Below are positions 20,124-27,807 of a stretch of DNA of 40,888 nt, in pieces. The DNA is taken from NCBI GenBank assembly GCA_964398485.1, contig CAYNMD010000004.1:1-40888 (forward strand), read 5' to 3'. Below the pieces are notes generated by a model. That model was not told the DNA's origin and ran no database searches. It saw only the letters and a program-made list of their open reading frames with translations. The stretch's first letter is position 1, and every line of letters starts with the position of its first letter. This DNA comes from an uncultured Bdellovibrionales bacterium (lineage in GTDB: Bacteria > Patescibacteriota > Minisyncoccia > Moranbacterales > UBA1568). The position numbers and the translations under genes were made by a program.

Positions 20124-23078
20124 ATGTTATTTTCAGTACATCCAAAAAGGACATTTTTGCAAAAGATTTTTAGCCTGTTTGGAATTATCGGTCTTTTACT
20201 CCCTTCGACGACACCTATTTATGCAGGCCTTTTTAGCGCTCCTAAAGTGCCAATGCCAAATGCCAATGAATTTGCTTCTGACATGGAACAGCGCTATCAC
20301 ATTAATACTGAAAATATCCAGGATCAGGGAGAAACACTCAATGTAAGCGAGAACAAAAAAGGAACTCCACAAGTATCTCTTTTCTTTACCCCAAGCGACC
20401 CTCAGGAGGGTCAGAAGGTTACTGCTCGCGCCTTTCCAATCTATTTTTCTAGCGAGTCTAGTGAAATGTACTTTACCTGGTATCTGCAGCGAAAAGAGTG
20501 TGTCAAGAATAACGCACCTTCTGCAGCTGTCCGGACTCGCTGTGACCTCAATAATGATAGTCGAATAAATGTAGAAGATTGGAAGATTGAAGCGGCAAGA
20601 ATTATTGCAACCAATGGTTATGATGCTAACTACACCAATTATTCAGCGGACTCAGACAATGATGGTTACACGGCTCGTTTTGGCGGTGACAGCCGGGTCA
20701 ACGTTCCCAATCACTGTTATTATCATGATAACTCAAAAGGGGAAAATTATGAGTTGGTAGGCGATGCTGGTACGACAACTTTTAATTGCGCCAGTGGATT
20801 ACAGCCCGTCTGCATGGAAGCGAATGTGGCCGTCGACCCCGGGGAATTTAGTGCTGGTGGCACGGGTGGTACAGGTACAGGTGGTTCTGGCTCAGGTGGT
20901 GATGGTGGCGGCTCTGGAACGGGTGGCTCCGGTGGGTCTGCTACTGGCGGTACTGGTACTGGGGGAAATGGATCGGTCATTGGTGACTCGTTTGATGTAA
21001 CTGGTAATGGTGACACGGTGACTGGCTTCCCATACTGTTCTGGTGGTACCGTCGCTTGTATCACTGGTACCCCTTGTTGTGTGAGTAATCCATCCACGGC
21101 TACAAATTGTACCGTAAATATCACGGGGTCATCATGTTCTGCCGAGACAAGCGGTGATAGTGGGCCAGTTTGTAGACATCTCTTTCCTAAACCTTCAGGA
21201 TTTACAAGTGGAGATGGTGATTTTGGTAAAGATGAAGAAAGATTTTGGCGCACCGATCCAAGTGATCCGAATACTTCTGATAATGGCAATAAAGACGAGG
21301 CTAATGTAGTTGGTCTTGGTCAGGAGGGATTTACTTGGAACTATAGTCGAGGAGACAAGGTCGGAGTGGTGGTTGAGGGCGCCTCGATGATTCCTACCAA
21401 GCATGATGATTCGTCAAACATGATCATGTGGGCGTTTTCCAAAAATACTTGTGACTACAGGAAATATGGAGCTGATGTTGGGACCTATCAGAAATCGGTA
21501 CGTGGTTATACTGTGACAATTCCCACAACGGATCTTGATATTAATAATTGCCTTGAAGACAACTTGGTTGACCCTCTGGAGGGTGGGCAAGGAACGGGTC
21601 TCGAAGTAGAACTCAATGCTACCCCAACTGATCCAATAAATGATAGTACTGGTGGTAATACGGGGGATATTATTACAGTTACCACAAGTGTAAATAATTC
21701 TTCGCAAGAGCTTCGTAGTACTTTCTTTGATTGGAAAGTGTACATATCCAAAGATGGGACAGCCAATCCAACGGCTGGCTGGGAGAATATCAATGCTTAT
21801 CTCATGGGTCAAAAGATGTTGACCCAGACCAAAGGAAATGGTCTTGATTCTTTGACGCTTGCTCTCAATGTGCCTGACGCTGATGTGAGGCGTTTTCTTT
21901 CTGGAGGAGTAGGATACCTTAAGTTTCAGGTGGATGTAGCTGAAAACTTTTCAGCCTCTGGAGCGAATCGTCGTGGTAAGTCAGATATTATTGTTAAATT
22001 TATCTCGACTGCTGAGCGTATCGCTGCCTATATCGTGAATGTAAATGGTGATCCTGCCAAACTCTCTCTCAATGAACAAAAAGAAATTTGTAGTGGTACG
22101 GTAAATCCGGCTGATAATGAAGAACGAAAGATTCTTACCAAGCTTGATGCTAAACTCTGTCGAGTGATCAAAAATGAGATTATTGGTCTCAAGGTGATCT
22201 ATCCGACTGATGGGAATGCCTTTACGAATTTCAACTGGACGATCAATGGCTTGCCCCTCGTGTGTAATACACAGGTATCAGCGAGTTGTGCTAATGAGGC
22301 TCAGGGGGGGATAAACTTTTTCCCTATAATTGGAAATATTGGTGATGTCTTTACTATTACTGTTTCTGCGACACGTTCTCAGGATGTGGCTGGGATTTTT
22401 GATACCGATGTCACTCGTCCGACAGTGAGCGAGAAGACTATTACGCTCTCTCGAGCCTTCAAAATAGTAGAGCCAGGAGTCTCAATAGCTTCAGCTGATA
22501 CTGATCAAGCCTGGCCAAAGGTCTTGGGAAAGTATGTTGATGCTAATGGGAAGCAGTATACTGATTACAGCAAGACAACCCTCCAAGCCTTTGCTGGTTC
22601 AACAGTAAGACTCAAAGCAGAGTTTACCCCTGACTTTCTTGGTTCCTATACTCCGCCACAGGTAGAGCGATCCTGGGCAGTGGATGGCGAGTCTGTGGGG
22701 GATGGTACGAGTAACGAAATTAGTTTTTCTACTCTGAAAAAACCTGGAGAGATATATAATGTCACGCTTTCTTCGGCATATCGCCCAAGTGCTCTTGTAA
22801 GAAAGGCTCTGCAGGATATTTGGAAAATCTCTGCCTTGGACTCGACAGAACTCTATTTCAAAACAGAATCGCAATTGGAGCATCCGGAGCAGGTTGATCT
22901 TGGGAAGGCAGGACAAAACAAGTATCTGGCGCTTCTTTCGAGCTATGTGCCAGCGCCACTCTTGTTTGCGGTAAGGATATTTCTTTCTGTGGGACTCATT
23001 ATCTTTGTGACCGGATTTCTCTTTGCTCTTATCCCTAATGCTCCTACAAGACCAGCCGCTTTTATTCGAAGGCGTTAG
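20124..23078 (+). CDS. Large (985 aa) secreted, Cys-rich, C-terminally membrane-anchored protein with Ca-binding-type Asp loops, a Gly-rich linker and repeated Ig-like modules
   Basis: Signal-like IFSLFGIIGLLLPSTTPIYA. Asp loops CDLNNDSRINVEDW and ADSDNDGYTARFGGD (dockerin/thrombospondin-type-3-like). Linker is the 40-aa tract GGTGGTGTGGSGSGGDGGGSGTGGSGGSATGGTGTGGNGS. Cys cluster CSGGTVACITGTPCCVSN..C..C..C. Recurrent FxW..xG strands. C-terminal TM FLSVGLIIFVTGFLFALI followed by RRR. ATG 20124 is chosen over the listed GTG 20070, which would overlap the previous gene. Confidence 0.7.
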   Translation: MLFSVHPKRTFLQKIFSLFGIIGLLLPSTTPIYAGLFSAPKVPMPNANEFASDMEQRYHINTENIQDQGETLNVSENKKGTPQVSLFFTPSDPQEGQKVTARAFPIYFSSESSEMYFTWYLQRKECVKNNAPSAAVRTRCDLNNDSRINVEDWKIEAARIIATNGYDANYTNYSADSDNDGYTARFGGDSRVNVPNHCYYHDNSKGENYELVGDAGTTTFNCASGLQPVCMEANVAVDPGEFSAGGTGGTGTGGSGSGGDGGGSGTGGSGGSATGGTGTGGNGSVIGDSFDVTGNGDTVTGFPYCSGGTVACITGTPCCVSNPSTATNCTVNITGSSCSAETSGDSGPVCRHLFPKPSGFTSGDGDFGKDEERFWRTDPSDPNTSDNGNKDEANVVGLGQEGFTWNYSRGDKVGVVVEGASMIPTKHDDSSNMIMWAFSKNTCDYRKYGADVGTYQKSVRGYTVTIPTTDLDINNCLEDNLVDPLEGGQGTGLEVELNATPTDPINDSTGGNTGDIITVTTSVNNSSQELRSTFFDWKVYISKDGTANPTAGWENINAYLMGQKMLTQTKGNGLDSLTLALNVPDADVRRFLSGGVGYLKFQVDVAENFSASGANRRGKSDIIVKFISTAERIAAYIVNVNGDPAKLSLNEQKEICSGTVNPADNEERKILTKLDAKLCRVIKNEIIGLKVIYPTDGNAFTNFNWTINGLPLVCNTQVSASCANEAQGGINFFPIIGNIGDVFTITVSATRSQDVAGIFDTDVTRPTVSEKTITLSRAFKIVEPGVSIASADTDQAWPKVLGKYVDANGKQYTDYSKTTLQAFAGSTVRLKAEFTPDFLGSYTPPQVERSWAVDGESVGDGTSNEISFSTLKKPGEIYNVTLSSAYRPSALVRKALQDIWKISALDSTELYFKTESQLEHPEQVDLGKAGQNKYLALLSSYVPAPLLFAVRIFLSVGLIIFVTGFLFALIPNAPTRPAAFIRRR
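20850..20975 (+). repeat. GGT/GGC-rich low-complexity coding tract (poly Gly-Thr/Ser linker)
   Basis: About 125 nt of imperfect GGY-NNN-GGY repeats encoding SAGGTGGTGTGGSGSGG...GNGS. The tract creates the Pro-rich shadow ORF on the opposite strand (20747-21289). Confidence 0.8.
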
Positions 23079-23110
23079 TAAGATTTGGTGGGTAGTAGTA
23101 GAAAATAAAA

Positions 23111-23136
23111 GCACCAGAAGTACACTGGTGCTTTTT
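23111..23136. terminator. Bidirectional rho-independent terminator
   Basis: Stem GCACCAG (23111-23117) pairs with CTGGTGC (23125-23131) around the 7-nt loop AAGTACA. It is followed by TTTTT (23132-23136) and preceded by an A-run (AAAATAAAA). It lies between the convergent T4SS-like operon and the minus-strand tRNA-Leu. Confidence 0.8.
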
Positions 23137-23137
23137 G

Positions 23138-23221
23138 TGCCGCGGGAGAGACTCGAACTCTCATGCCTTTGCAGGCGCCAGCTCCTAAGGCTGGTGTGTC
23201 TACCAATTCCACCACCACGGC
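23138..23221 (-). tRNA. tRNA-Leu (anticodon TAG), class II with long variable arm, no encoded CCA
   Basis: Reverse complement reads GCCGTGG TG ... CCAGC CTTAGGA GCTGG ... long variable arm ... GAGAGTTCGAGTCTCTC CCGCGGC A. Acceptor stem has 7 bp (one G-U); T-loop TTCGAGT. The 3' flank is CAA. Confidence 0.9.
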
Positions 23222-23224
23222 TTA

Positions 23225-23536
23225 TTAGGCGAGAAGAGTTAATTCTCCCGCGCTACTGCGTATCCTCTCTATCTCTTCTCGGAGCGCCCCCTCATGATCG
23301 TATTCCCCATGATGACGAGTCTCTTGTCCGTACGTCTCCTTTTTTTGATCTAAATGAATACTGAAAACATATCTACCAGATTCAGTTTTAACATAACAAT
23401 GGAATCGAGGAAAGCCCCCTTGACCAAGAGGGCGGACGAAGCTCATCTCATTTTCCTTTTGATACTGAAAAATATAGCCAAGCCTACGCATAATAGTAAC
23501 GGCATTATCAGTAGTATGATCAAGAGTGAAACGCAT
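23225..23536 (-). CDS. Hypothetical 103-aa protein located exactly between tRNA-Pro and tRNA-Leu
   Basis: ATG 23536 (MRFTLDHTTDNAVTIMRRLGY...FPRFHCYVKTESGRYVFSIHLDQKK...HHGEYDHEGALREEIERI). The longer listed ORF start (23611) would run through tRNA-Pro. Tandem stops TAA-TAA (23227-23222) abut tRNA-Leu position 1 (23221). Purine-rich AAGAAGAAAGAAGAG lies upstream of the ATG. Confidence 0.5.
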   Translation of the reverse strand: MRFTLDHTTDNAVTIMRRLGYIFQYQKENEMSFVRPLGQGGFPRFHCYVKTESGRYVFSIHLDQKKETYGQETRHHGEYDHEGALREEIERIRSSAGELTLLA

Positions 23537-23563
23537 ATTCTCTTCTTTCTTCTTTGAATTATG

Positions 23564-23637
23564 TGGTCGGGGTGCCGGGAATTGAACCCGGATTACATGC
23601 ACCCGAAGCATGCGTAATGCCGTTATACCACACCCCG
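23564..23637 (-). tRNA. tRNA-Pro (anticodon CGG), CCA encoded
   Basis: Reverse complement reads CGGGGTG TG GTAT AACGGCA TTAC G CATGC TTCGGGT GCATG TAAT CCGGG TTCAATT CCCGG CACCCCG A CCA. It folds as a full cloverleaf with G37 3' of the anticodon. Confidence 0.9.
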
Positions 23638-23656
23638 TGGGAGGTCGTCTGATCCC

Positions 23657-25246
23657 TTACTGAACTCTATGGACGTCCTTGATATTCTGATCATCCTCGA
23701 GGCGTTTTTCCTCAATTCGTTCCTTGGCGAGAGAACGTAAAGTTTCCAGGTCATTATCCATGAGTTTATGAGCTCGGTCAAGAAGGACGTCCCGTTCATT
23801 TTTCTTGGCATCTTCAATGACTTCGGCTAGAAGACAATCAAGAAGTGCTCCAACCTTTGGTCCAGGCTTCAGCTTTAGCTTTTCCATGAGTTCCTTTCCA
23901 TCGATTTTGAGCATTTTAACAGAAATAGCATCTCGGGAAACCTTATCAATCATGTATTCGAGGTGGCGGAGTTTGTAGGGTTTAGCTTTGGGTACCCCTG
24001 ACCCGAGTCGATCACCAATACGGACAGCCATAAGATCATCCATATTTTCTGGTCCAACTCTCCGAAGAAGGCGGCGGACACTTGCCTCAGTGACTTCACC
24101 AACATTGTAATAGAAGAGATGGTTATCGACGAGTAGAGAAGCATGATCAATTATTTTTTTGGGATAGCGAAGTCTTTCAAGAACCCGTTTTGTTATACGA
24201 GCACCGACATGATCGTGATTGTAGAAGGTAGCGCGATAACCTTCACCACGTTTTGTATCAGGCTTACCAATATCATGAAAGAGAGCAGCCAGTCGCACGG
24301 CGAGCTTATCAGATGGACAAGTCTCGAGCGCTCTCAGGTTATGTTCCCAGACGGTATAGATATGGTGGAGATTTTGTGTGACGCCTATACCTCGCTCGAG
24401 CTCAGGGAGAAAATAGCCAAGAACATGAGCTTCGTGGAGTAATTCTATTCCTTGGCGAGGATGTGAAGAGGTAACAATACGAGAAAATTCATCCCGGATC
24501 CTCTCAATGGAGAGGGCTCCTACTCGGCTTGAGAGGTTTCGGAGAGCATCCCACGTAGAGGGTTCAATTGTCCAGTCAAGTTTTTCCCTCTTCCAGTCAC
24601 CACTCGAGAGTTCGGTAACGAGGCGAATAGCTCGGAGAATACGGAGAGCATCTTCCTCAAATCGTTCTGTAGGATTACCTACAGCACGAATTATTTTTTG
24701 ATGAAGATCATCTTTCCCCCCGAAGGGATCAATAAGAGTAAGGCTGCAGGAAATTAATTGAGTGTCGCTTGGCTTGTCTGGAGAGGTACTGATTGATTGG
24801 TTTAACTTGGCAGCAAGAGCATTGACGGTAAAATCACGACGACCCAGGTCTTCTTCAATCGTTTCAACAAACTCCACAATATCTGGGTGTCTCTGATCAG
24901 TGTAGTTTGATTCAGTGCGATAGGTCGTTACTTCGATGAGATCAGTTGCTTGGTCTTCTGGTGTTGTTTTGAGGAAGCGCCCTACTTTTATACCCACCGT
25001 GCCGAAAGTATTTTCGTATACTGACTCAGGAAAAATTTTCTGAATTGCCTCAGGTTTAGCATCGGTAGTGATATCCCAATCTTTTGGTTCACGACCAAGA
25101 AGGAGATCACGGAGTGATCCACCAACGACAAAAGCCTCGAAACCATGAGTTTCAAGAAGACGAACAACATCAACAACTGGTTGAGGAATGTCTACACGCA
25201 TTAAAAAATCATTATTCCCTGTGCGAAAAAGAGCTGATTTTTGCAC
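23657..25246 (-). CDS. cca: CCA-adding tRNA nucleotidyltransferase (PolyA_pol head domain plus HD domain)
   Basis: Head-domain motif VVGGSLRDLLLGREPKDWDITT; RILRAIRLVTEL; HD motif LAALFHDIGKP. Alternative start ATG 25201 (MRVDIPQ...). Confidence 0.85.
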   Translation of the reverse strand: MQKSALFRTGNNDFLMRVDIPQPVVDVVRLLETHGFEAFVVGGSLRDLLLGREPKDWDITTDAKPEAIQKIFPESVYENTFGTVGIKVGRFLKTTPEDQATDLIEVTTYRTESNYTDQRHPDIVEFVETIEEDLGRRDFTVNALAAKLNQSISTSPDKPSDTQLISCSLTLIDPFGGKDDLHQKIIRAVGNPTERFEEDALRILRAIRLVTELSSGDWKREKLDWTIEPSTWDALRNLSSRVGALSIERIRDEFSRIVTSSHPRQGIELLHEAHVLGYFLPELERGIGVTQNLHHIYTVWEHNLRALETCPSDKLAVRLAALFHDIGKPDTKRGEGYRATFYNHDHVGARITKRVLERLRYPKKIIDHASLLVDNHLFYYNVGEVTEASVRRLLRRVGPENMDDLMAVRIGDRLGSGVPKAKPYKLRHLEYMIDKVSRDAISVKMLKIDGKELMEKLKLKPGPKVGALLDCLLAEVIEDAKKNERDVLLDRAHKLMDNDLETLRSLAKERIEEKRLEDDQNIKDVHRVQ

Positions 25247-25270
25247 GGGATTCGATCGAGAGAGGCGGTT

Positions 25271-27031
25271 TTATAGCCGGCGACGTTTTTCTTCTACCGT
25301 GTAAGATACAAGCGTATCACCAGCAGCAATCTTCACTGATCCCTCAAAGACTACACCACACTCATTCCCTTGACCTACCTCGTCAGCATTTTCTTTATTG
25401 CGTTGGAGGTTAGTCATGAGGCCATCGCCGATAATTTCTCCATCACGTTTTATTTCAATTCGAGACTTGCGAATCATTTTTCCACTGGCGACACGGCCAC
25501 CAACGATCATATCTCGCTTACCTGTTTTGAATATCGCTAATACGGAAAGTGTGCCATGATCAGTGCGGATGATTTCTGGAGGCAAAAGATTAGCCATCTC
25601 ATCTTTTACGGCCTCGACGAGTTTATAAATAATGTTAAAGCTTTTGATTGGTACCTTGGCGGTTTCAGCCATACGTTTGGCAACGCTAGTAGGATCAACA
25701 TTGAATCCAAAAATATGAGCCCCAGAGCTTTCTGCTAGTTTCACATCTGATTCGGTAATAGAGCCAACCCCAGTCATGATTTCATCAAGAGCTACTTCAG
25801 GATGGTTGATAGTACCAAGAATTTGCTGGATAGCTTCGAGCGACCCCTGGACATCAGCTTTAAGAATGACAGGGAAATGTTTGATGGTTTCGTCCTCCTT
25901 TTTGGCCACTCGTTTTACCTCTCCCTCTTTCAGGAGGGCCTCTTGGGATTTGAGCCTAGCGAGTGATTTCCCTGAAACGACTTGGACGACGTCGTTTACC
26001 TGAGGAACATCCCCAAAACCATACAGGGTAGCCGGGAAAGATGGGGTAACAATCTCTCGATTTTTACCAGTGAAATCTTCAAGACGTCGGACTCGACCAA
26101 AAACACTGCCAGCAATAATATCTTGACCGACTTTGAGAGTGCCGGTTTTGACAAGGATGGTAGCTACCGGACCTTTTTGTGGGTCGAGATGGGATTCGAG
26201 TACTACTGCGAGTCCATCGCGTTTGGTATCAGCCTGGAAATTCTCTACCTCGGCTACGAGGAGAATAGATTCGAGAAGTTTATCGATGTTGAGGCCACTT
26301 TTGGCACTGACCTCGACACAGATAACATCACCTCCCCATCCCTCAAAGAGAATACCGTGTTCAGCGAGTTCCTGTTTGACACGGTCTGGTCTTGCTTCTG
26401 GCTTGTCGATTTTGTTGATGGCTACGATGACTGGGAGTTTTTTCTCATTGATAAATTGGATAACCTCTTTGGTCTGAGGACGAACACCATCATCAGCAGC
26501 CACGACCAAGATAGCAATATCTGCAATCGAGACACCACGTTCACGCATTCCAGAGAAAGCTTCATGTCCTGGAGTATCAATAAAGGTGATGATCTGACCA
26601 TGTTTCTTGACCTGATAGGCACTGATTTTTTGAGTGATGCCACCAGCTTCTCCAGCAGCCACGTTAGCCTTGCGGATCGTATCGAGCAGGGTCGTCTTCC
26701 CGTGATCAACATGTCCAAGGATAGTAACAATCGGTGGGCGGGACTCGAGCGGTCGTTCGCTCTCGCTTTTTTCGTTGGCACAAATTTTGGTGAGGTCTTC
26801 GAGCGTGAGGGAGCCGGCTTTTTCCTCAGTACTTTCAGTGGCTTGAAAGCCGAGTTCGCTGGCAATGATAGAGGCAGTATCAAAATCAATTTCCTCGTTG
26901 ATAGTGGCGAGGATTTTGTTCTTCATGAGCTCGGTAATAATAGTTGCTACCGGAACATGTAGAAGCTCCGCAAACTTTTTGACAGTTACGGTTTCTGGGA
27001 GAGCAACTATTTTTTGATTCGTGTCTGACAT
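25271..27031 (-). CDS. infB: Translation initiation factor IF-2, short form (586 aa)
   Basis: G1 GHVDHGKTTLLD; G3 DTPGHEAF; G4 AINKIDK. C-terminal beta-barrel domains are present. It lacks the long N-terminal region of E. coli-type IF-2. Confidence 0.95.
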   Translation of the reverse strand: MSDTNQKIVALPETVTVKKFAELLHVPVATIITELMKNKILATINEEIDFDTASIIASELGFQATESTEEKAGSLTLEDLTKICANEKSESERPLESRPPIVTILGHVDHGKTTLLDTIRKANVAAGEAGGITQKISAYQVKKHGQIITFIDTPGHEAFSGMRERGVSIADIAILVVAADDGVRPQTKEVIQFINEKKLPVIVAINKIDKPEARPDRVKQELAEHGILFEGWGGDVICVEVSAKSGLNIDKLLESILLVAEVENFQADTKRDGLAVVLESHLDPQKGPVATILVKTGTLKVGQDIIAGSVFGRVRRLEDFTGKNREIVTPSFPATLYGFGDVPQVNDVVQVVSGKSLARLKSQEALLKEGEVKRVAKKEDETIKHFPVILKADVQGSLEAIQQILGTINHPEVALDEIMTGVGSITESDVKLAESSGAHIFGFNVDPTSVAKRMAETAKVPIKSFNIIYKLVEAVKDEMANLLPPEIIRTDHGTLSVLAIFKTGKRDMIVGGRVASGKMIRKSRIEIKRDGEIIGDGLMTNLQRNKENADEVGQGNECGVVFEGSVKIAAGDTLVSYTVEEKRRRL

Positions 27032-27050: not shown

Positions 27051-27563
27051 CTAAAGTTTTTTCTCTTGTGAAGAAAGTATAGCCTCGTGAATGACAGCCT
27101 TCTCTTCTTCCGTAAAGGGGAATCCGTCAGCGGCCCCATTCTTTACTGGTTTAGCGTAAGCGCGAGTTCCCTCACGAGTGTGGAGTGACGAGAAGACCAC
27201 CCCAGAATTTTTCCCATTGAGGAGAGCTACAGCATAACTCTGGTTCCCTCCAACTTCCTTGAAAGGATTGAAGCGCATGACAGCTGTCTTATGGAGGCTC
27301 TTGACCCCAAGCTGGTGAAGTCCATTGGAGATAGTGAAGAGTTCCTGGATTTCTTCGTCGAGCTCACGGAGAGATTCACGAGTTTCCAAAAGGACTGTCT
27401 CGAGATCCTTCCCGTCTTTCCCAGAAAGAAAGGCACTGAGGAGTCTCTGGAGTCGCTTGAGTTCGCGATGTTCATACCAGAGCACTCCTCCGATAATGAC
27501 GAATCCAAGCAGAGCAAAACTGAGAATAGCGGGGAGAACCCACGAGGATAAAGAGGCGACCAT
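27051..27563 (-). CDS. DUF4446 family membrane-anchored protein
   Basis: N-terminal TM WVLPAILSFALLGFVIIGGVLW and a coiled-coil segment. The conserved C-terminal block is RFNPFKEVGGNQSYAVALLNGKNSGVVFSSLHTREGTRAYAKPV...FTEEEKAVIHEA, which matches my memory of DUF4446. Confidence 0.65.
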   Translation of the reverse strand: MVASLSSWVLPAILSFALLGFVIIGGVLWYEHRELKRLQRLLSAFLSGKDGKDLETVLLETRESLRELDEEIQELFTISNGLHQLGVKSLHKTAVMRFNPFKEVGGNQSYAVALLNGKNSGVVFSSLHTREGTRAYAKPVKNGAADGFPFTEEEKAVIHEAILSSQEKKL

Positions 27564-27807
27564 AAGACTCTAGTGCGAAGCCTAGCATCATTTGCCTCTC
27601 TCGTAAACTGTCCAGACCACTCTTTTTTGGTAGGGGTTTTATGGAGAGTCTGGGACACTGGTAACATCGATTCCGGCATGGGGTAATCGGGACTTTCTTG
27701 ATGAGGAGTAGCGGATGATCCTCCCTGAGGAATTTTTTCAAATCCCATGTAGTTTGGTCTGTAAAAGTTGCTCAGGGTGTATACTGAGTATGAATAAAGT
27801 ATAACGT

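Follow-up and report, generated by a model that had tools for sequence, protein, structure and literature searches.

How is a protein-coding gene expressed when it is wedged between two tRNA genes with almost no DNA to spare on either side? The question is raised by a stretch of 40,888 nucleotides (nt), hereafter the window, on contig CAYNMD010000004.1 of an uncultured member of the Patescibacteriota (class Minisyncoccia, order Moranbacterales), whose genome, labeled G000, is 98.9% complete. On the minus strand of the window, a 103-codon open reading frame (ORF) for a protein here called P0001 lies 27 nt behind a gene for tRNA-Pro and directly in front of one for tRNA-Leu. The best explanation overall, to which we give a probability of about 0.6, is that this is a Patescibacteria gene in the tail of an infB-cca-tRNA operon, co-transcribed with its neighbors and freed by tRNA processing. 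The anatomy of the locus, its conservation, the selection acting on the gene and the presence of RNase P in the genome are established; co-transcription, the cleavage sites and the role of the protein are inferred. The features of the locus, in coordinates of the window, are as follows.

27051-27563, minus strand: gene with a DUF4446 domain (Pfam match), 19 nt from infB
25271-27031, minus strand: infB (from the ORF list), 24 nt from cca
23657-25246, minus strand: cca, the gene for the CCA-adding enzyme (Pfam: PolyA_pol head, RNA-binding, HD and tRNA_NucTran2_2 domains)
23753-23781, minus strand: promoter-like site TTGACC-17-GATAAT (consensus scan, 10 of 12 matches)
23564-23637, minus strand: tRNA-Pro(CGG) (ARAGORN; Rfam RF00005, 59.3 bits), with CCA encoded at 23566-23564
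23537-23563, minus strand: spacer and would-be leader, 27 nt, A/G-rich, with T at -1 and no Shine-Dalgarno sequence (read from the sequence)
23225-23536, minus strand: gene for the 103-amino-acid protein P0001, first TAA included (translation, homologs, substitution rates, AlphaFold model)
23137-23221, minus strand: tRNA-Leu(UAG) (ARAGORN; Rfam 56 bits, model position 1 at 23221), CCA not encoded
23107-23135, both strands: intrinsic terminator hairpin of 11 pairs (minus-strand terminator scan; plus-strand T-run read from the sequence)

The order along the minus strand is therefore DUF4446 gene-infB-cca-tRNA-Pro(CGG)-ORF-tRNA-Leu(UAG)-terminator hairpin, a co-oriented array that extends from about 27563 to the hairpin behind tRNA-Leu. 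The stop codon of cca (23657-23659) is followed after 19 nt by tRNA-Pro. The P0001 gene begins with an ATG at 23536, runs for 103 codons, and closes with a TAA at 23227-23225 and a second in-frame TAA at 23224-23222. This second stop directly abuts position +1 of tRNA-Leu, so that the spacer is zero, or 3 nt when counted from the first stop. The hairpin and its T-run (23135-23107 on the minus strand) begin 1 nt past tRNA-Leu and are shared with a convergent plus-strand gene that ends at 23078. An initial annotation, made from the letters of the DNA, had placed both tRNAs, the ORF and its stops at these positions, and the sequence, ARAGORN and Rfam bear out all of its coordinates. The bidirectional terminator that it described behind tRNA-Leu is likewise recovered, by the scan on the minus strand and as a T-run on the plus strand.

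The concern raised when the ORF was first described, that it might be spurious, is settled by its relatives. A word-indexed search returned 392 homologs of 90-130 residues (counted at 90% clustering), all of them unnamed proteins from uncultured Patescibacteria (Moranbacteria and others), and an exhaustive profile search gathered 491 clusters at 50% identity. Across 60 aligned family members, 16 columns are invariant and a further 19 are at least 90% conserved. The invariant residues include R17, G20, Y21, P43, R44, H46, H61, D63, H75, E78 and Y79, the family carries the motifs RR-GY-FQ, EMSF-R, PRFH-Y, HLDQKK-TYG and RHHGEY, and the last 8-10 residues are variable. The starting methionine (M1) is also invariant, so a 128-amino-acid frame that starts inside tRNA-Pro is a gene-caller artifact. 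Between P0001 and its counterpart in G288, a genome of the same genus, there are 24 nucleotide changes and 4 amino acid changes (96% protein identity), and the ratio of nonsynonymous to synonymous substitution rates (dN/dS) is 0.043; the comparison with a second relative, G189, gives 0.057. G000 holds a single copy. The ORF is a genuine conserved gene under strong purifying selection, probably inherited vertically, and its family consists of Patescibacteria-specific proteins of about 100 residues.

Is the tRNA-gene-tRNA arrangement conserved along with the gene? Among 401 sampled genomes of the class, 89 carry the family gene; every one of the 19 other genomes sampled from the order to which G000 belongs is among them, and these 19 and G000 provide 20 loci for comparison within the order. 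A co-oriented tRNA-Leu(UAG) stands behind the gene at 18 of the 20, 2-126 nt away; of the remaining two, one has no tRNA-Leu behind the gene and the other lies on a contig that ends too early. The spacers from gene stop to tRNA-Leu measure 2, 3, 3, 4, 6, 7, 9, 10, 11 and 18 nt at ten loci and 30-126 nt at eight. tRNA-Pro(CGG) stands in front at 12 of the 20, separated from the gene by 0, 0, 8, 12, 16, 27, 30, 35, 39, 109, 152 and 365 nt. At the two loci with a 0-nt spacer (G270 and G305), tRNA-Pro ends ...CCG-A73-C and the next base is the A of the ATG. The protein gene upstream is cca at 15 of the 20, and in three order genomes that have no tRNA-Pro the family gene follows cca after 9-23 nt. 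At the level of the order, the unit is thus cca-(tRNA-Pro)-gene-tRNA-Leu, and the arrangement singled out by the initial annotation is kept across the order; the tandem TAA-TAA is common only to G000 and its nearest relative. Recurring in related genomes around an ORF under strong purifying selection, the arrangement is beyond chance.

Two of these loci have features of their own. In G015 (contig C5, locus L008, oriented about 1880-1890), a 337-amino-acid gene appears to start about 3 nt past tRNA-Leu, giving a run of tRNA-Pro, 16 nt, family gene, 4 nt, tRNA-Leu, about 3 nt, and the next gene. In G210 (contig C2, locus L004), tRNA-Pro and the ORF are 35 nt apart, and this spacer holds a terminator-like hairpin with a T-run about 10 nt ahead of the ATG, which might act as a leaky terminator or protect the 5' end of the message.

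The spacing bears directly on transcription. Consensus scans of the minus strand from 23637 to 23137 found no promoter-like or terminator-like site, in agreement with the initial annotation, which saw no terminator between the tRNAs and the ORF. Spacers as short as those seen here and at many loci of the order offer no space for a promoter or a terminator, and co-transcription is for that reason the best reading. At the short-spacer loci, the scan of the final 150 nt of the ORF turned up no promoter-like site but for one weak exception, and a promoter-like site precedes tRNA-Leu at four of the seven loci with spacers above 40 nt and precedes the ORF at two loci. This pattern is the one to be expected if tight junctions are co-transcribed and loose ones are now independent. 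By these signs, infB, cca, tRNA-Pro, the P0001 gene and tRNA-Leu are probably co-transcribed. A single transcript would issue either from the start of the operon or from a weak promoter within it, near the end of cca. The TTGACC-17-GATAAT site, the one candidate promoter that the scan found nearby, lies there, inside the 3' end of cca and about 115 nt upstream of tRNA-Pro; on the strength of the consensus scan, transcription of the tRNA-ORF-tRNA unit might begin at this site, which is not kept in most relatives.

RNA libraries contain the locus. It is present as contigs in four metatranscriptome runs, and contigs of two studies run across both junctions (X3 record 16, 23136-24355; X1 record 6, 22692-26918; flat depth). 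Contig breaks at the tRNAs coincide with branching of the assembly graph caused by the tRNAs of other organisms (depth up to 238, many loose ends). At 27627-27776 of the window, two soil RNA-library runs have contigs in which 148 nt give way to 1083 other letters, an insertion or replacement at the level of strains in the divergent region upstream of the DUF4446 gene.

If the transcript is shared, tRNA processing would release the message from it, and part of the machinery is at hand. G000 encodes RNase P RNA (RF00010, 102 bits, above the cut-off, on contig C41) and RnpA (PF00825, 41.8 bits, on C18). With both present, the proposal made in the initial annotation, that RNase P cuts at tRNA-Leu +1, is plausible. 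Such a cut would sever the message 3 nt past its first stop and leave it without a protective 3' hairpin, and the tandem stop may, as we see it, buffer the new end against 3' nibbling. At the other end, an endonucleolytic cut at or near the 3' end of tRNA-Pro would leave a short, unstructured leader without a Shine-Dalgarno sequence. RNase Y, RNase J and PNPase are present in G000 as well, as are three small ORFs with a metallo-beta-lactamase fold; an RNB-family exonuclease was not found in this genome.

Would a message that starts so close to its ATG be unusual in this organism? The leader and start region fold at -5.4 kcal/mol with a z-score of +1.1, less structured than shuffled sequences. 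A Shine-Dalgarno-like 4-mer lies upstream of 10% of 600 long ORFs in G000 and in 8% of cases in a control window, so that use of the signal is nearly absent despite a 16S rRNA 3' end that keeps CCUCC. The T at -1 is shared with 64% of the long ORFs. The leader of the P0001 gene is thus ordinary for G000: short, unstructured and without a Shine-Dalgarno sequence. Autoregulation through the codons of the flanking tRNAs was rejected on reading the sequence, as the ORF contains neither CCG (Pro) nor CUA (Leu) codons.

What the protein does is harder to say. It belongs to no family that can be named, as the initial annotation had it: no Pfam or NCBIfam entry matches above threshold (NCBIfam yields a peptide match below it), a PDB profile search with the family gave 0 matches, PHROGs show no consistent match among family members, and a language-model atlas returned only the unnamed clusters of the family itself, which a structure atlas returned as well. 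Pfam DUF5055 (PF16478) scores 12.1 bits (E 0.23), below its gathering cut-off of 25 bits, with any match at all in 2 of 60 members. Colicin-DNase and AHH nucleases, each below threshold in 1 of 60 members, were treated as noise. The first impression of a HicA-like or double-stranded-RNA-binding-domain-like toxin was dropped, since there is no HicA among the fold matches and no Pfam match.

The AlphaFold (AF2) model has a predicted local distance difference test score (pLDDT) of 83.5 and a predicted template modeling score (pTM) of 0.75. It shows a two-layer beta-alpha-beta4-alpha sandwich, in the order strand, helix, four strands, helix, strand, with six strands forming an open sheet; the conserved loop at residues 69-76 is modeled at low confidence. 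Judged from the alternation of residues along the strands, R44, H46, Y48, H61, D63 and K65 would lie on the exposed face of the sheet, next to the RHHGEY loop. Invariant Arg, His, Asp, Glu and Tyr, spread over this face and a long loop, suggest a site that binds phosphate, metal or RNA. The best fold matches are E. coli YgiF, a triphosphate-tunnel (CYTH/TTM) protein (5a61; Z 8.2, root mean square deviation 2.8 over 83 residues), the METTL16 VCR (6m1u; 7.7) and the Chk1 KA1 domain (5wi2; 7.5); several other tunnel enzymes score lower, and about ten TTM entries stand among the top 50, with all scores within the tool's range for unrelated folds. P0001 resembles CYTH/TTM proteins such as YgiF and KA1-type domains (5wi2, 6m1u) in the strand-helix-four strands-helix layout and in the charged residues on one face of the sheet. 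It is half the size of a TTM tunnel, however, with an open six-strand sheet where the tunnel is closed and eight-stranded; it lacks ExExK, its first strand reading M-R/K-hydrophobic-x-hydrophobic, and sequence similarity is absent. A two-copy complex prediction, made for the idea of a TTM-like tunnel formed by a homodimer, scored 0.00, which speaks neither for nor against it.

The order-wide linkage to cca and tRNA genes makes tRNA-end metabolism the leading guess for the protein, and a phosphate-, metal- or RNA-binding role there is a tentative and rather doubtful assignment. The initial annotation had hinted at a tRNA- or translation-related role from the placement of the gene. That idea is weakened, for it draws on the order-level cca/tRNA linkage alone and family members in other classes do not stand beside tRNAs.

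Several findings weigh against the reading of a co-transcribed gene freed by tRNA processing. The first concerns enzymes. For canonical RNase Z (TIGR02651), G000 gives no match at E<=0.001 and none of the 401 class genomes reaches the cut-off; RNase E/G was not found in G000 either, so that the 5' cut has no known enzyme assigned to it. The earlier idea that 3' maturation of tRNA-Pro defines the leader loses ground here, with RNase Z undetected and the CCA of tRNA-Pro already encoded. The second concerns the precision of the junctions. In G288 (locus L002, contig C7, oriented 1318-1981), decayed tRNA fragments stand at both gene junctions, the front one being the 3' half of a tRNA-Pro with a T-loop insertion of about 20 nt and the rear one the first 21 nt of a tRNA-Leu, and the gene is separated by 109 nt from an intact tRNA-Pro and by 84 nt from an intact tRNA-Leu. 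A similar tRNA-Pro remnant precedes the gene in G189 (L003); these remnants suggest that, within the genus, the flanking tRNAs have been duplicated, have decayed or have recombined. Spacers measure 41-126 nt in seven genomes of the order. An exact fit at the junctions is thus not required, and the weight first given to it is reduced by a gene that persists in G288 behind and before decayed fragments.

The third concerns the reach of the arrangement. Outside the order, a co-oriented tRNA lies within 200 nt at 9 of 50 class loci, in at least four configurations (Pro-CGG/Ala-CGC, Pro-UGG/Gly-UCC, Ala-GGC and Ala-UGC), and in other classes none of 20 family loci examined stands beside a co-oriented tRNA within 200 nt; tRNA adjacency beyond the order amounts to a modest enrichment at best. 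Three further points belong here. The promoter and terminator scans are consensus matches in a host whose promoters are not characterized. One RNA-library contig also spans the convergent gene, which makes DNA carry-over as likely a source as transcription. And P0001 has no significant relative by sequence or fold.

The neighborhood outside the order offered no conserved protein partner, the neighbors varying (U32 peptidase, Glu dehydrogenase, HHH_8, LigB). At three loci of the class family f40 (L030, L035 and L036), the family gene and the end of a gene of the U32 peptidase family have 4 nt (ATGA) in common. This peptidase family includes RNA hydroxylation enzymes, and the overlap is a possible second RNA-related linkage of the family.

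The likeliest of the other explanations is true punctuation, in which the message can be translated only after the upstream tRNA has been excised; the mRNA would then have a short leader here and none in relatives, and protein output would be tied to tRNA maturation as in mitochondria. The zero-spacer loci speak for it, since an ATG directly at the tRNA end leaves no room for a ribosome to load beside a folded tRNA, and so do the 8-16-nt spacers in G117, G231 and G015, the coding gene about 3 nt past tRNA-Leu in G015, and a genome that hardly uses Shine-Dalgarno sequences. But the 27-nt unstructured leader in G000 means that the precursor itself could be translated, RNase Z is undetected, long spacers that are not tRNA or separate promoter-like sites occur in G288 and in several order members, and processing at the comparable E. 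coli secG-leuU junction destabilizes the mRNA and does not activate it. We consider this explanation unlikely.

Separate transcription of the three genes would place a promoter for the ORF in or before tRNA-Pro and one for tRNA-Leu in the poorly conserved 3' end of the ORF. The DNA that encodes the variable last 8-10 residues could carry such signals, and promoter-like sites do stand before tRNA-Leu and the ORF in longer-spacer relatives. Against this, the scan of 23637-23137 is empty; a 3-nt spacer would make the -10 box overlap the stop codons and the transcription start fall inside the tRNA, and spacers of 0-16 nt in relatives leave no room. Independent transcription is accordingly improbable, and co-transcription of the whole array accounts better for the short spacers.

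It would be a long shot, too, to combine the missing enzyme and the unnamed protein: an unknown endonuclease would free the tRNAs in a lineage without RNase Z, yielding short-leader or leaderless mRNAs, and the gene would encode a factor of the tRNA 3'-end and CCA pathway, a partner of the CCA-adding enzyme with a His/Asp/Arg active face. P0001 itself was rejected as a replacement for RNase Z, there being no phyletic complementarity: a partial RNase-Z-like gene occurs in about 22 of the 401 class genomes, the family is present in 89, about 10 of the 22 or so also have it, and more than 300 genomes of the class have neither.

How exceptional is such packing in G000? About one-fifth of its 33 tRNA genes have a coding gene that ends at most 20 nt upstream, as in dnaX-10-tRNA-Gln and cca-19-tRNA-Pro, and some have a gene that starts at most 15 nt downstream, as in tRNA-Arg-13-rbfA. 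A second gene bracketed by tRNAs is found on contig C1:13144-13610 (L101:345-811; ORF L101:499-741), where tRNA-Met(CAU) and tRNA-Asp(GUC) enclose the gene for an 81-amino-acid GIY-YIG protein (Pfam E 2.7e-12), with its TAG stop about 10 nt into tRNA-Asp. The P0001 locus is not the only one of its kind in G000, and under the reading that we prefer, of a co-transcribed gene freed by tRNA processing, the tight packing would mainly reflect genome compaction of a mixed tRNA-mRNA operon, with no dedicated regulatory device. That the P0001 gene is a selfish or mobile element docked in a tRNA spacer, like the GIY-YIG and LAGLIDADG genes between Patescibacteria tRNAs, is highly improbable: the GIY-YIG gene in G000, the different tRNA pairs that adjoin the family outside the order, and the duplicated, decayed tRNA fragments at both G288 junctions would fit it, but the family gene is single-copy in nearly all genomes that hold it, is present in all 19 other sampled order genomes, keeps a stable cca synteny, evolves with a dN/dS of 0.04, has no consistent nuclease or PHROG match among its members, and mostly resides away from tRNAs.

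One further tRNA gene of G000 deserves mention. At C10:29548-29623 (minus strand), beside tRNA-Glu(CUC), lies a 76-nt, normal-sized tRNA with anticodon UCA and an encoded CCA, which ARAGORN labels SeC. TGA ends 106 of 495 long ORFs and so behaves as a stop codon in this genome; the UCA-anticodon tRNA might serve as an opal suppressor or have a foreign source.

The locus offers a conserved test case for protein expression from tRNA-containing transcripts in ultra-small bacteria that are poor in Shine-Dalgarno sequences and in which RNase Z and RNase E are undetected. Its zero-spacer relatives would reveal whether leaderless messages can arise by tRNA processing in bacteria. It also raises the question of which enzyme matures the 3' ends of CCA-less tRNAs in the class; in G000, by ARAGORN ends, 28 of 33 tRNA genes have no encoded CCA. 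The family itself is widespread and unnamed (about 490 clusters at 50% identity), with a conserved surface of catalytic appearance, and the cca linkage supplies a first hypothesis for it. In the literature available for searching, nothing was found that deals with genes abutting tRNAs, with leaderless messages or with the loss of RNase Z in Patescibacteria. What merits experiment is the relatives with a zero spacer, the RNase Z that is missing, and a protein family still without a name.

How does the locus compare with systems already known? In the tufB operon of E. coli, thrU-tyrU-glyT-thrT-tufB, tRNA genes are co-transcribed upstream of a message for the translation apparatus. There, the tufB message has a long leader with a ribosome-binding site, whereas here the spacer is 27 nt (0-16 nt in relatives) and has no Shine-Dalgarno sequence.

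The 3' junction has a direct precedent in E. coli secG-leuU, where, across a 14-nt spacer, a single RNase P cut separates mRNA from tRNA and makes the 5' end of the tRNA and the 3' end of the mRNA at once (Mohanty and Kushner, 2008; PMC2241853). In both cases a protein gene precedes a tRNA-Leu gene at very short distance (14 nt there, 3 nt here) with a terminator behind the tRNA. The locus in G000 differs in that a tRNA also precedes the gene, the spacer after the second stop is zero, RNase E/G and RNase Z are not detected in the genome, and it is known from sequence alone. Once cut free, the secG message is gone within seconds, with PNPase as the main degrading enzyme (PMC2241853); G000 has PNPase and no RNB-family exonuclease was found in it, and a cleaved P0001 message would likewise lack a 3' hairpin.

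In mitochondrial tRNA punctuation, which the initial annotation had invoked, mRNAs are bracketed by tRNAs with almost no spacer and tRNA excision defines the mRNA ends (PMC3790967). The likeness lies in tRNAs that directly flank the mRNA, at 27 and 3 (or 0) nt here and at 0-16 and 2-11 nt in relatives, and in start codons that abut the tRNA in G270 and G305. Unlike in mitochondria, full stop codons are encoded and none needs completion by polyadenylation, the message in G000 has a 27-nt leader and so is not leaderless (only G270 and G305 have the ATG directly behind the tRNA), RNase Z is undetected, and the pattern involves a minority of genes and is dispensable in relatives. Set beside these systems, the locus is a compact new example of the known bacterial mixed tRNA-mRNA operon rather than a new principle.

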